A stretch of 64,000 nt of DNA from Candidatus Latescibacterota bacterium (GCA_965217865.1 CBDCJO010000002.1:5056001-5120000); one strand, 5' to 3'; positions 40,487 to 52,192 are shown, counted from the stretch's first letter. Numbers and translations: made by a program. The notes: generated from the sequence alone by a model not told the origin.

Positions 40487-41230
40487 TCAAAGACCCGGAT
40501 TCCGTCCCCCGAAGATCGCCTGACCGGCTTTCATCCAGAATAGATCGATTTCCACAAAACCCGCCTGTTCCATCCAGCGGAGTTGCTCAAACAGGCCGGA
40601 CATCTTGTCGATCGGGTCTGAAAACCGATAGGCGTTCCATTTTCCCCTTTGAAAGATCTCAAAGGCCCTGGTGTTTCCGTCGATCTCGAGTGAACGCCTC
40701 CTCACGGCCTCGTCCCAGGCTTTCGCAGCGACCGCCACGCCTGGCCCGAAGACGGGTTGGATGACATCGGCGATTAGGAAGGCACCGTCGGGTACCAGGA
40801 GGTTCCGGATATCGCGGAAAAGGGACTGCTTCTGAGAACTGTCGAGGTGGTGAATCGCAAGAGAAGAGACGGCGTAATGGATCTGCGCATCCGGATGCCG
40901 CCATGCCCGTAAGGCGAGGTCGCTTTGTTCCGCAGAGAAGCGATCGCCGAATCGAACCAGGTTTGCCACCGCCCGTTTCAGCATCTCCGGGGACACATCC
41001 ACACCGTGTACCACGCAACCCGGAAACCGTTCCAGCAACGCTCCCGCAAGCACGCCTTCACCGCAACCGAGATCGAGGAGGTGAAAAGGGGGATCGACGG
41101 GCGTAATCAGATCGCACAGGATTTCGATCTGAACTTCCCGGTCAGGCACGAAATAAACCCCGCAATCGAGGAATATCCGGGTATCCTCCTCATCCCATCC
41201 GGCCTTCCTGTCGTCTGGTCGCGGGTCCAT
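40487..41230 (-). CDS. Class I SAM-dependent methyltransferase (CmoA-like)
   Basis: LDLGCGEG, DVSPEML, SSLAIHHL; start uncertain (41230 or 41287). Confidence 0.85.
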   Translation of the reverse strand: MDPRPDDRKAGWDEEDTRIFLDCGVYFVPDREVQIEILCDLITPVDPPFHLLDLGCGEGVLAGALLERFPGCVVHGVDVSPEMLKRAVANLVRFGDRFSAEQSDLALRAWRHPDAQIHYAVSSLAIHHLDSSQKQSLFRDIRNLLVPDGAFLIADVIQPVFGPGVAVAAKAWDEAVRRRSLEIDGNTRAFEIFQRGKWNAYRFSDPIDKMSGLFEQLRWMEQAGFVEIDLFWMKAGQAIFGGRNPGL

Positions 41231-48148: not shown

Positions 48149-49674
48149 CAGCCCGTTGAAGAACTACCTTTCAACGCACATAAACGGAAAAGACGCCTGG
48201 AGTGCGGGTCAGATAAATCAAGGTAAGGAGATTGAGCAGGAGACGCTGATAAGAGGTTAAAAAGGTGACCGAGGGCAGCAAACGTGATTGTAGGACGAGC
48301 AGTAGACGCTGCAAGGCCTTGGCCAGGTCCTGGAGGGCCTTCGGAGTACCTACGCCCATCACTTTGCGCATGAGCAGAGCCAGGTTGCAGCCCCCGATGT
48401 GGATCAGCAAACGCTTGAGGATATTGCCGCGGTCTCTCAAGTGCAACCTGCGCATGCCACCGGTATCATATGTGTGAGCGATGGTTCTTTCCACCCGTTC
48501 TGCACGACTTCGGCGCAAGACCTTGCCGCGATCTCCCTTGATCCGGCGTCGATTCGCATATACCGCGGCCTGCTCATCTCGTCGGCCGTTCCACTTGCGG
48601 CGTCCCCGATCCGGTTCTGAAATGTAACTCCGGATGCCGCCTTGCTTCAGACTGGTCAATACATCGTTGCTATGATATCCTTTGTCCGCAACCACCTCCC
48701 GTATACGCTGTCTGTGCAAACGTTTGGCAGCTTTTTCGTCCTTCGCGACCTGCTTGAGATTGAGCTGCGCCTCGAGCAGCGTCCAGGGCAACGACTCGGT
48801 ATCTCCTTCATCTGCTCCCGACAACGCCACTGCCACAATGGCATTGGTGTCCAGATCCACCGCGTGCTCCACCTTGTGCGCCATGTGCGTGCGACCGTCC
48901 TTCATCTTAGCGATCTTGGCATCCGGGTCGTGCGGGTGCTCCCAGTCCTGGTTCGATCCCTTCTTCGGTCGCTTCTTATCGATCTTGGACAAGTCCTCGC
49001 GGGTAGGCGTTTCAATGCCCGAGGCCTTGGCCAGATTCTCAAGGAATGCCTGGTAGCCTTCACCCGTGTCACGGCGTACAATGCTGCGCATCGCGGCGTT
49101 GGCCTCCAGTGTCGTAGCATCCACGCCCAACGTCTTCCCCTTCACCAGACCCGCTTTGCACAAGACCCTCAGGATCCACTTGAAAACCGCTTCGTGAACT
49201 TCCAAGGGAAGCCGATGCCGGATGCGAGACAGGCTGGAATGATCCGGGGTCTGTTCGTCAAGGGCATACCCCAAAAACCGGCGCAACGTCAGCGAGTCAG
49301 ATACACGCCATTCGATCCCACGTTCCGAATCAAGTCCCTCGAAATACCCAATCAAAAGCATCCGAAAATAAACCCCGGGCGGAATGCCCTTGCGACCCAT
49401 ATGAGGAGCGTAATACCGCTGGCAAAGCCCCTCGACGAACTCGTCGAAGCCGTTCGCCCCCAATACCTGATTCAGCTTCTCGTAGAACGGATGACCCGGA
49501 AATTTCACCAAAGTGTTCGATGCGATGAACAGGTTTTCCTGTCTCTGTCGTCCTCGTTTTCCCATTGCCATTTGCTCGTCCTCCCTTCTCAGTTTGAACC
49601 TGATATATCATAGGACCAAACCACAAGGAAAGACAATAGTCATCTTGGCATAAACGCACTTTTTCAACAGGCTG
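48149..49674 (-). mobile_element. IS1182/IS5-like insertion sequence, copy 2 (1526 bp)
   Basis: Same terminal IRs as copy 1; perfect TTAG direct repeats at 48145-48148 and 49675-49678. Confidence 0.93.
48171..49571 (-). CDS. IS1182-family DDE transposase
   Basis: Same protein as 18517..19917 except VKSP to VKFP. Confidence 0.92.
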   Translation of the reverse strand: MAMGKRGRQRQENLFIASNTLVKFPGHPFYEKLNQVLGANGFDEFVEGLCQRYYAPHMGRKGIPPGVYFRMLLIGYFEGLDSERGIEWRVSDSLTLRRFLGYALDEQTPDHSSLSRIRHRLPLEVHEAVFKWILRVLCKAGLVKGKTLGVDATTLEANAAMRSIVRRDTGEGYQAFLENLAKASGIETPTREDLSKIDKKRPKKGSNQDWEHPHDPDAKIAKMKDGRTHMAHKVEHAVDLDTNAIVAVALSGADEGDTESLPWTLLEAQLNLKQVAKDEKAAKRLHRQRIREVVADKGYHSNDVLTSLKQGGIRSYISEPDRGRRKWNGRRDEQAAVYANRRRIKGDRGKVLRRSRAERVERTIAHTYDTGGMRRLHLRDRGNILKRLLIHIGGCNLALLMRKVMGVGTPKALQDLAKALQRLLLVLQSRLLPSVTFLTSYQRLLLNLLTLIYLTRTPGVFSVYVR

Positions 49675-49735: not shown

Positions 49736-49764
49736 TTGACAGTCCTTAAACCCGTGGGTATATT
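49736..49764 (+). promoter_or_regulatory. sigma70-like promoter upstream of short ORF at 49801
   Basis: TTGACA-17 bp-TATATT (the -10 box ends near 49764). Confidence 0.5.
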
Positions 49765-50011
49765 TTTGATAACTTCACACATTCAAAAAAGGATCCACCT
49801 GTGGAAGACGATAAGATTCCAAACTTTCTCCTGCCTTTAAGCCCGGAGGAAAAGAAGAAAGCGAAAGAATACGCAATTAGAACTCAAGGGCTTGACTTTT
49901 GGTCCCTTGTTGGTTATATTTCCCCCACTTTGAGCGGCGAAACGCCTGACTGGCCAAGCCGGACTAGGGTTTCGTTAGTCTGATTGGCCACGCTAAAGGG
50001 AGGACTGCACA

Positions 50012-51151
50012 ATGGATTTTATCGACGAAGTTCGGACGCGCTCATCTCGTTTCGCACAGCGGACTGAGCATTTTAACGATCAGGAATCCACCGAGGAATC
50101 AACCAAAACCTCGCTCGTTTTACCGTTCATTCAGATGCTTGGCTACGACATATTCAATCCTGCTGAAGTTCTTCCCGAATTCACGGCGGATATTGGAACC
50201 AAGAAAGGCGAGAAAGTGGATTTTGCACTAATGCAGGACGGCCACCCCATAATACTTATCGAGTGCAAGAAACTGGGAACAACGCTCTCTAGCGATACTG
50301 TGTCCCAGCTGCTTCGGTATTTTGGCGTTACGGAATCGCATGTCGGCATATTGACGGACGGTATCTTTTACCGGTTCTTTTCCGATCTTGATCAGTCAAA
50401 TGTCATGGACCCTCGCCCGTTTTTTGAATTCAATATGCTCGACTTCACCGAGATCCAGGTGAAGGAATTAAAAAGATTTACCAAAGACGAGTTTGACAAA
50501 TCGTCGATCATCGGCGCGGCAAGAGAATTAAGATACACCGCCGAGATCAAAGGTCTGCTGGCACGGGAATTAATGAAACCTTCGGACGACTTTGTGAGAT
50601 ATGTCATCCGTCAGGTTTATGAAGGAAGGGTTTCGGTGGCATCCCGTAATATGTTTAAGGAGCTTACTTTTTCTGCCTTTAACCAATTCATAAGCGACAA
50701 AATACAGGACCGTCTGGCAAGTGCGCTAAAACAGGAAGGCGACGCAGCACAGGAGCAGCGGCCCGACAAAATTTCAGAAAAAGAAACTCCCGAGTTTGCA
50801 CCGGCCGAACTTGCCGCGCTAAACACCGTAAAAGCTATCTTGGGCGGCATTGTGAATGCTAGCCATCTCGGTTTAAGGCAAGCCAAGCGCTACTGTTCGG
50901 TTGTGCTGCATCGCAGTCCCGAAAAGAAAGATTACGGGACCGTCCTATTCCATTTGTATGCGAGGCGCCCTGAGTCTGTAAAGGTGAAGGGGCCGGGAGT
51001 CACACCTATCGCACTCGATACGATTGAAGACCTTTTTGCACACACAGACCACTTACGCAAGTTCGTCCAGGAAAACGAAGCGATCGCTGCGCCAGCCTCG
51101 GATCATGCAACACCGCCCGTTGAAATCATTACGCAAAGCACCCCATCATGA
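50012..51151 (+). CDS. HsdR_N-like PD-(D/E)xK nuclease domain protein (IS passenger)
   Basis: TEESTK..LVLPF..LGYD, EV.PE, KVDFAL, IECKK, QL.RYF, ILTDG..YRFFSD; no helicase or methyltransferase motifs. Confidence 0.85.
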   Translation: MDFIDEVRTRSSRFAQRTEHFNDQESTEESTKTSLVLPFIQMLGYDIFNPAEVLPEFTADIGTKKGEKVDFALMQDGHPIILIECKKLGTTLSSDTVSQLLRYFGVTESHVGILTDGIFYRFFSDLDQSNVMDPRPFFEFNMLDFTEIQVKELKRFTKDEFDKSSIIGAARELRYTAEIKGLLARELMKPSDDFVRYVIRQVYEGRVSVASRNMFKELTFSAFNQFISDKIQDRLASALKQEGDAAQEQRPDKISEKETPEFAPAELAALNTVKAILGGIVNASHLGLRQAKRYCSVVLHRSPEKKDYGTVLFHLYARRPESVKVKGPGVTPIALDTIEDLFAHTDHLRKFVQENEAIAAPASDHATPPVEIITQSTPS

Positions 51152-52013
51152 ACGTATCAAATGTCCGCTTGTTCTTGCGGTTATTGTATTTGTAGCAGGC
51201 TTCAGCCACGTAGAACGGCGTGTATCGCTTCGTATAGTGATGATGGGAACCGTACCAGGCACGCTTGAGTAAAGACCACACGCCTTCAATCGTGTTGGTA
51301 TGTATATCACCGTCCGCGTAATGCCTGGCGTGGTGGATCACCGCGTGATCCATGATTTGCCTTACGGCGTTGTAGGCCCCGAATTCGTCCGTGACAAGCA
51401 TCGACTCCGAAGGGTCTATCGCCTGCTTGATGAAGGCCAGAACTCCCCTGCCCGACAGATCGTCCGCCACGCGGGCAACTACCTTCCCGCCGCGTTCCAC
51501 GGCTCCTATAACCGGAGTCTTGCTGGTTCCGCGTCCCCTGGGAGCGTTGCCGCCGCCATCCGACCGTCTGTTGCGTTTCCTGGGCTTGCCTCCGACGTAG
51601 GTCTCATCGGCTTCGACGATCCCTCGCAACAATACCTTCCCCTGCCTTGTTGCCATCTCGGCACGAATCCGCTGTTGCATGTACCATGCAGACCGTTGCG
51701 TAAGGTTCAGGTCCCGGGCAAGCTGGCAACTGGACAGGCTTTTCTTGGCGTTCACGATCAAGGCGATCGCCATAAACCACTTCTGAAGCGGAAGGTGCGT
51801 TTTCTGAAATATTGTCCCGGAAAGGACGTTGAAGCTGGACTTGCAGGCATGGCAGTTCCAACGCCCGACGCGGTTTCCCTCTTTCTTCTGGGCGCACTCC
51901 CCAACCGCCCCACACAGCGGACAAAACGGATCACTTCCGAACCGCACCCGCTCCAGATGCTCAATGCACGATTCCTGCGTCGGGAACTTTTCAATCGCCG
52001 TCAACAAGTTCAT
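51129..52013 (-). CDS. IS1595-family transposase
   Basis: Zn ribbon CPLC..CHAC, VEADETYVGG, RGRG, VTDE..AY, HTNTIEG.WS.LKR. Confidence 0.95.
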   Translation of the reverse strand: MNLLTAIEKFPTQESCIEHLERVRFGSDPFCPLCGAVGECAQKKEGNRVGRWNCHACKSSFNVLSGTIFQKTHLPLQKWFMAIALIVNAKKSLSSCQLARDLNLTQRSAWYMQQRIRAEMATRQGKVLLRGIVEADETYVGGKPRKRNRRSDGGGNAPRGRGTSKTPVIGAVERGGKVVARVADDLSGRGVLAFIKQAIDPSESMLVTDEFGAYNAVRQIMDHAVIHHARHYADGDIHTNTIEGVWSLLKRAWYGSHHHYTKRYTPFYVAEACYKYNNRKNKRTFDTFMMGCFA

Positions 52014-52192
52014 TTTCCTTTCTCCCTTTTTTTGGTTAAGTTGGTTGTTTTCACTACACTTAATATAACCAAAAAAGGGTTGAAAGTCAAGCCCTTAAAT
52101 TCTAATTGCGTTCTTTTTTATCCTGCCGATACCCGCCGCCGGTCCGACCCTTTGGCGTTGCCATCCCCGATTCGTTTTTTATATTCGCATCC

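Follow-up and report, generated by a model that had tools for sequence, protein, structure and literature searches.

What is a lone restriction-type nuclease gene doing inside an insertion sequence, and what might it do for its host? The question is raised by positions 49872-52110 of the window (the whole analysed stretch of 64,000 nucleotides), which form a ~2.2-kb transporter element of the IS1595 family, with a transposase and one convergent passenger gene between inverted repeats. An earlier note on this DNA had reported 50-bp inverted repeats (42/50 identical) and an element spanning 49871-52111. The repeat pair was reproduced at these coordinates and the element is real, but its true ends lie one base further inside (41/49 identical), since the target duplications of sibling copies fix them there. 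Chance does not explain the inverted repeat: no other of the 46 inverted pairs found in the 10 kb around it is as long (57 nt, 81%), and sibling copies throughout the genome end in the same motif. The features are:

49864..49871, no strand: left flank 8-mer, different from the right flank 8-mer and likely the end point of an adjacent deletion
49872..49920, plus strand: left terminal inverted repeat of 49 bp; an inward sigma70-like promoter lies within it
49921..50011, plus strand: passenger 5' leader with a ribosome-binding-like site
50012..51151, plus strand: passenger gene, 379 aa, a stand-alone HsdR_N-type PD-(D/E)xK nuclease (PHROG 4225 family)
50789..51079, plus strand: C-terminal alpha/beta domain of the passenger (residues 260-356), no Pfam family
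51129..52013, minus strand: IS1595-family DDE transposase, 294 aa, with a CxxC-CxxC zinc ribbon
52062..52110, minus strand: right terminal inverted repeat, whose sigma70-like promoter points inward at the transposase
52111..52118, no strand: right flank 8-mer, likely the original target duplication because it also stands before the left end in one contig from sequencing run X3

Only two genes fill the element. As had been noted before, they are convergent and overlap by 23 bp (51129-51151), and both reading frames were confirmed; an IS1182-like transposase gene and a glutaredoxin/Yip1 gene flank the element. The putative left-end promoter, called from sequence, has its -35 box at 49892, a 17-bp spacer and a -10 box ending at 49920. 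The passenger leader folds modestly (z -2.4; 5/200 shuffles were equally good), and among five variant positions in its hairpin two are pairing-compatible, two are pair-breaking and one is unpaired, which makes the hairpin weak and not covarying. Given this and the lack of any Rfam match for the leader, a structured-RNA leader was set aside. The RNA run X15 yields short contig fragments from the two genes and nothing from the flanks; such contigs cannot show transcription.

The transposase matches NF033547 at 184.5 bits (cut-off 75) and the Pfam families DDE_Tnp_IS1595 (PF12762) and Zn_ribbon_IS1595 (PF12760), and carries the motifs CPLC/CHAC, EADETY, TDE and TNTIE. It is present in 12 copies in the genome (91-100% identity); the passenger nuclease is present once. 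An AT-rich 8-bp target duplication surrounds 8/12 copies (seven exact, one with one mismatch), two others have paired ends without duplication and the last two have no partner end within 9 kb. Similarity between the sibling copies ends at the transposase stop codon, behind which seven different sequences follow across the 12 copies. Besides the nuclease, this slot holds four intact N6_N4_Mtase-HNH fusions and one split one, a 541-aa methylase inside a nested element of 10 kb, three copies of a 108-aa gene without a name and genes for small membrane-like proteins. Methylases are numerous in this genome, and several of them lie on these sibling elements; the genome's other IS1595 elements include some with Panacea/SocA antitoxin genes and a partner gene. 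The passenger stop codon sits antisense to the last codons of the transposase, which fits capture directly at that junction. Tabulating passengers between homologous ends, a check proposed earlier, thus gave seven cargos in the slot, and related IS1595 elements enclose close homologues of the nuclease in two other genomes.

The copy under study has no 8-bp target duplication in the assembled allele. All or part of the stretch is present in seventeen public runs, which come from seven studies; contigs were compared over the whole element for X1, X3, X4 and X15 and over the left junction for X1, X3, X4 and X12. At the junction, contigs of three of the four runs (X3, X4 and X12) show an empty site, in which the left flank continues without the element, and in contigs of the same three runs the left end adjoins other flanks. 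A contig of X12 joins the left end and the cargo-specific leader, with 0 differences, to a different flank, and the alternative left flank in X3 finishes in the same 8-mer as the right flank of the copy in the window. In one contig of X1 an extra 692 bases separate position 49871 from the left end. The likely course of events is an insertion with normal duplication, followed by deletion of 692 bp next to the left end, and the duplication is missing because this deletion likely removed it. Deletions next to an insertion sequence are a typical product of intramolecular transposition. Flank swapping with another copy was rejected in favor of deletion because neither the empty-site continuation nor the alternative left flank occurs in the genome assembly, which is 96% complete. 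One of the examined runs may be the source of that assembly. Among 40 relatives, none has both flanks together as an empty site. Transposase, two ends and cargo form one mobile unit that sits at several sites with different slot contents in different copies, a conclusion we hold with high confidence; the former suggestion of a self-mobile single-gene nuclease unit agrees with the empty site and with the element end at other sites in the run contigs.

The passenger itself matches HSDR_N (E 9e-13) and HSDR_N_2 over its first 130 residues. The D...ExK and QxxxY motifs that the earlier note had read in it are present (D70, E84-x-K86, Q99-xxx-Y103) and near-invariant in 476 aligned rows (D70 in 470, E84 in 471, K86 in 471, Q99 in 472 and Y103 in 473, the rest being gaps). 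In the predicted model (pLDDT 85, pTM 0.59) a nuclease (~1-160) is followed by a helical region (163-244), a disordered linker (245-259), a separate alpha/beta domain (260-356) and a disordered tail (357-379). Structural matches of the nuclease are HsdR 3h1t (Z 11.0, rmsd 3.7, 126 aligned) and DrdV (Z 10.9, rmsd 3.4, 140 aligned), then BpuSI (Z 9.7) and EcoR124I (Z 7.8) in the wide search; Foldseek also returned DrdV, at E 2e-3. Compared with its homologue in locus L035 (see below), the gene has a dN/dS of 0.16 overall (0.09 in the nuclease, 0.16 in the helical region and 0.17 in the C-terminal domain), at a dS near saturation. Conservation and fold make HsdR/type IIG-like DNase activity of the N-terminal domain very likely; PADLOC gave only weak partial matches on the passenger (E 6e-4 or worse). 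No helicase, methylase or specificity partner was seen beside the gene, as previously claimed, and when ORFs of the window longer than 150 aa were scanned crudely for motifs, none showed a DEAH/DECH helicase motif and a single DPPF match lay at 40487, ~9 kb from the element. Membership in type I systems fails, as there are no HsdR helicase/translocase domains and no linked hsdM/hsdS was seen.

What had been taken as a surprise, an HsdR_N nuclease without partners, is the normal state of a very large family. Residues 8-353 of 379 match positions 5-352 of 357 in the PHROG 4225 profile (E 2.7e-93), a match that spans the nuclease, the helical part and the C-terminal domain. Of 8000 scored, at least 6001 are near-length homologues, and 4662 representatives of 50%-identity clusters matched at E 0.001. 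The family appears in 19 phage records and is patchy across many phyla and phages, where it has no linked methylase; phage Juicebox gp33, which directly follows the repressor, is a member. At 211 distinct loci the commonest neighbor clusters, labeled by reading their sequences, are integrase (23), HExxH peptidase (12), ABC transporter (8) and HTH repressor (7). For 74 loci, chosen to fit the limit of the tool and with proteins cut at 520 aa, 0/148 immediate neighbors match a methylase, HsdS or HsdR model of PADLOC and 11/148 match any PADLOC model; linkage to defence islands is therefore weak. The only longer relative among 6566 candidates is a methylase fusion. We take this stand-alone family of PHROG 4225 type to be COG4748. 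In the accessible text of the respective papers, COG4748 is listed among the restriction-endonuclease cargo of Tn7-like transposons (PMC8649781), grouped with HSDR_N (PMC3424549) and present in rhizobial prophages (PMC12429752). According to the available text of a Campylobacter study (PMC8713573), it is unclear what a lone HsdR N-terminal protein does, although that protein may not belong to this family.

The same cargo also occurs in a second IS1595 lineage. In locus L035, from a MAG titled Acidobacteriota, a 69%-identical passenger homologue is convergent with an IS1595 transposase between perfect 23-bp repeats with an exact 8-bp duplication, and the insertion splits a gene that reads as peptidase-like. 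Locus L257 (genome G207) holds a relative of the L035 element (70% DNA identity) with a frameshifted passenger and no duplication. The transposases of L035 and L257 are 32-34% identical to that of the window and their ends differ, whereas the cargo DNA is 73-77% identical; the cargo has therefore passed between two IS1595 lineages or been caught twice by them. All three elements (3/3) share a TTGAC-17-TAnnnT site pointing inward from the cargo-side end. Using a profile built from the transposases of this analysis, an IS1595 transposase was called in only 2/242 homologue loci and not in the remaining 240, 207 of the 242 loci having >=600 bp downstream. In a 55-row tree the three IS-borne nuclease genes fall in one 23-row clade (support 100/99), which also takes in 18 proteins without context and two non-IS genes with a different tail; in this tree the clade is mixed, and the three need not form a group of their own. 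Among the five members of the window's clade whose context was seen, three are IS1595-borne. No IS-borne copy was found in 80 JGI metagenome loci or in 37 viral loci, sets of 351, 151, 33 and 10 genomes around other carriers yielded no further one, and no viral contig carrying this transposase was found.

The clearest hint at function comes from the other end of the protein. The earlier note had proposed a C-terminal region of ~130 aa as a candidate sensor; the folded domain covers only ~97 aa (260-356) between the disordered linker and tail. Among 452 relatives with a full core and a tail >=70 aa, 409 have the default C-terminal domain and 43 have another tail, a few of the 43 looking out of frame (frameshift artefacts) and several matching no named family. 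The largest group of replacement tails has 16 members, at least six of which match a five-sequence SeqA-like tail profile at E 0.0013 or better; with Pfam SeqA_C, one tail lies above the cut-off and five below. In another group, two of the five members score above cut-off for DUF4357, and further tails are RAMA (single), HARE-HTH (single) and DUF4268 (two). In about nine further proteins a SeqA-like domain is added behind the default domain, and other fusions are an N-terminal Mrr_N in one protein and TerD in three. These Pfam names come from scans of 45 and 17 proteins chosen for partial or long matches. The C-terminus is also the least conserved part of the protein (35% mean identity vs 72% for the nuclease), and in the clade of the window the most conserved loop of the family, DDNNRKPICRL, is replaced, so that specificity may be changed. 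Taken together, comparison of these sequences supports a C-terminus that behaves like an exchangeable recognition module.

The default domain itself carries no family name. A scan of 110 members gave scattered weak Pfam matches and no convincing family, profile comparison showed no similarity to two alternative tails, searches of PDB sequences, Pfam and the ESM Atlas gave no usable match, and none of these searches identified it as wH, SRA or PUA. A single-sequence structure model of this domain was unusable (pLDDT 49). Fold matches are middling (YdhG-like Z 6.1, YjbR Z 5.4, frataxin Z 5.1), and an unrelated Mediator subunit matches equally (Z 6.4). The double-wing domain of T4 MotA binds modified DNA, which we do not count as evidence. 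With regard to the replacement tails, SeqA binds hemimethylated m6A, and RAMA and HARE-HTH have been proposed as modified-base readers in restriction systems (PMC4738411, in the text accessible). Another source states in its available part that the methyl preference of RAMA is not confirmed experimentally and that HARE-HTH may sense cytosine marks; it also argues that stand-alone reader-nuclease fusions need modified targets and so avoid self-toxicity (PMC11037411).

We infer a role in defence, and the reading we favor, at a little under an even chance for the whole chain, is that the cargo is a modification-dependent (type IV-like) restriction enzyme directed against foreign DNA and carried by a mobile IS1595 unit. 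Transposase, ends and cargo move as one unit, as the copies at several sites show, and the slot behind the transposase stop takes different genes. The left-end promoter-like site could transcribe the cargo wherever the element lands; the N-terminal domain, to judge by conservation and fold, would cut DNA in the manner of HsdR/type IIG enzymes; and the C-terminal domain, as the domain swaps suggest, would bind a DNA mark that the host lacks and license cutting. No cognate methylase would be needed in this proposal because the mark that is read is absent from the host. The host would gain a barrier against phages and plasmids bearing the mark and the element would gain retention. This reading was chosen because it explains both a lone nuclease that crosses phyla and the replacement of its tail by known or proposed readers. 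Against it stand the default domain, which has no family and middling fold matches, the unconfirmed methyl preference of RAMA, the minority share of the swaps (43/452), the weak linkage to defence islands and the frameshifted L257 copy, and also the three TerD fusions, which do not fit a pure DNA-reader logic.

Other explanations have to account for the same observations. A C-terminal domain that detects a phage protein or DNA structure and then releases indiscriminate DNA cutting and cell death (abortive infection) is a possibility of clearly lower weight. It would suit the finding that temperate phages carry the family in their lysogeny cargo slot (Juicebox gp33; integrase-like neighbors at 23/211 loci) and the low conservation of the C-terminal domain (35% vs 72%), and stand-alone DNases have been proposed as suicide back-ups (PMC10853773, in the part available). 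However, the replacement domains named by Pfam are mostly DNA-binding modules of restriction systems and not protein sensors, and tail replacement by SeqA, RAMA, DUF4357, HARE-HTH and DUF4268-type domains, several of them proposed readers of modified DNA, favors modification-dependent restriction over abortive infection and over addiction alike. Addiction, i.e. post-segregational killing that stabilizes the element, had also been suggested before; here it is unsupported and we regard it as very improbable, because no antitoxin was seen, an empty site exists and one copy (L257) is frameshifted. Other IS1595 elements of the genome do carry the Panacea/SocA antitoxin genes with a partner gene, but this element holds neither an antitoxin nor a methylase gene that could be seen, the empty site is common in the examined runs, and the leader hairpin is weak and not covarying.

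Another alternative is sequence-specific restriction of unmodified sites, with protection by an unlinked methylase or a site-free host, or service as an extra nuclease subunit of a resident type I complex. The closest solved folds are indeed nuclease domains of type I/IIG/IIL enzymes, and the genome is rich in methylases, several of them on sibling elements. The passenger has, however, no helicase or HsdM-docking region, and a new host would rarely be protected, given how scattered the gene is over many phyla and phages with no methylase linked to it; we consider this explanation improbable. Still less probable is a neutral hitch-hiker, captured by chance and carried without benefit. The single copy in the genome, the frameshift in L257 and the unnamed small genes in the same slot are what such a passenger would lead one to expect, but purifying selection (dN/dS 0.16), intact catalytic residues, a strong promoter-like site and the presence of the cargo in two IS1595 lineages speak against it. 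Modification-dependent restriction can also be extended to a bolder and rather doubtful form: residues 260-356 would be a so far undescribed modified-DNA reader and the hallmark of one of the largest type IV-like restriction families; one clade would have specialised on IS1595 and moved between distant IS lineages and phyla, with methylase-HNH genes being spread by sibling elements.

The natural tail swaps turn modification-dependent cutting into a concrete and cheaply testable hypothesis for a family that is frequent in prophages. If it is true, restriction enzymes encoded by one gene would gain a large class and reader domains a new member, and 2-kb insertion sequences would be expression-ready delivery units for immunity genes. 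If in addition the domain is a reader and the clade is specialised on IS1595, insertion sequences would spread both methyl marks and the enzymes that destroy marked DNA, and barriers to gene flow would be set within a symbiont community.

How much of this is new? Since the vehicle has been described before and the gene family is widespread, the pairing by itself is a modest finding. In the full-text literature (most subscription papers, ISfinder and supplementary tables being outside this scope) neither a published IS1595 element bearing this nuclease nor a functional assay of its family turned up. We take Panchino gp28 to be a single-gene prophage defence; it was rejected as a member of the same family, as its N-terminal nuclease is 22% identical over 108 aa and the 827-aa protein is otherwise unalignable. 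Passenger-carrying IS1595 elements are already a named class: in the available text of TnCentral (10.1101/2021.05.26.445724), tIS are insertion sequences with passenger genes and are limited to IS1595 and IS66, and in that of PMC5704250 the IS1595 examples have 25-bp repeats and 8-bp duplications. The value of the case lies in the recurrent carriage of one nuclease clade by IS1595 and in a testable hypothesis of type IV-like function for a very large family.

The element resembles the tIS of the IS1595 family (tISCpe8, MTnSag1), as portrayed in the accessible parts of these sources, in its DDE transposase, its terminal inverted repeats and a passenger inside the ends; the 8-bp duplication is likewise shared by its siblings, and for this copy indirectly only. 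Unlike the tIS portrayed there, its passenger is a stand-alone HsdR_N nuclease, one backbone carries seven cargos in one genome, mostly restriction-modification-like, and the same cargo clade rides on two distant IS1595 lineages. With the PHROG 4225 'endonuclease' family the passenger shares a full-length match, the catalytic residues and the default C-terminal domain; members of that family usually lie beside prophage repressors or alone in chromosomes, whereas the passenger is IS1595-borne and its clade has the DDNNRKPICRL loop replaced. Type I HsdR and type IIG/IIL enzymes (EcoR124I, 3h1t, DrdV, BpuSI) have the same N-terminal nuclease fold (Z 7.8-11.0), but the passenger protein contains no helicase, methylase or specificity domain and has none encoded next to it. 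Lack of a paired methylase is part of the definition of type IV enzymes (PMC12707154, in its available text), and the PD-(D/E)xK members of this type (DpnI, PvuRts1I, wH fusions), as far as the accessible text of PMC11037411 and PMC12707154 describes them, are like the passenger single chains of a nuclease and a C-terminal module without cognate methylase. The passenger differs from them in that its nuclease is of the HsdR_N type with QxxxY, and from the wH-, SRA- and PUA-bearing enzymes in a C-terminal domain that matched none of these in the searches made.

The left neighbourhood of the element (window 49872-52110) comprises two features:
window 48171-49571, minus strand: IS1182/IS5-like transposase
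window 49736-49871, plus strand: strong promoter-like site and start of a reading frame

The reading frame is interrupted by the element; in the empty site, as found in contigs of public sequencing runs, it continues uninterrupted. Near-identical copies of the IS1182/IS5-like transposase occur at other places in the genome, and its contig depth was very high in the public runs compared.

In the same genome (G000; contigs C1 and C2) N6_N4_Mtase-HNH genes, intact or split, were identified as cargo of IS1595 elements from two lineages, and most genes of this type have an IS1595 transposase within 2 kb. The elements concerned are:
G000:C2:651746-654387, 1809778-1812419, 4039344-4042258, 5530183-5533097, 3670489-3674882, 312143-316744 and 4587905-4592506: IS1595 elements with N6_N4_Mtase-HNH

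An exact 8-bp duplication flanks a nested element of 9974 bp (G000:C2:4583550-4593523). Besides a second IS1595 element, this nested element encloses two methylases, an IrrE-like gene and one further transposase-like gene. The 8-mers flanking four element ends (G000:C2:3359123, 3584753, 3670489 and 3674882) match crosswise, which suggests a large rearrangement between two element copies by way of inserted IS1182-like copies. A 47-bp unit of two element ends placed head-to-head (G000:C1:432502-432548) is a minimal MITE-like relic.

A Panacea/SocA antitoxin gene is also carried by IS1595 elements together with an unnamed partner (G000:C2:898860-901085 and 4296392-4298617; locus L275:1237-1960), and the two genes are a candidate toxin-antitoxin pair as insertion sequence cargo. 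An unnamed cargo protein of 108 amino acids, which matched no Pfam family, is present in three copies in G000, and a look-alike is located near a related transposase in genome G011 (the two at L267:430-756 and L024:3366-3740).

A Pseudomonas phage record without annotation (KM389229.1:7599-8660) contains a member of the stand-alone HsdR_N family. Directly behind a truncated member, the ORF at L068:5708-6106 matches the C-terminal parts of the PADLOC PDC-S14 and DUF3780 models and probably represents a further (RAMA-like) tail separated by a break. At L314:1-2765 (genome G168) an IS1595 transposase is directly followed by a gene in which HsdR_N is fused to a methylase, an arrangement resembling type IIG enzymes.
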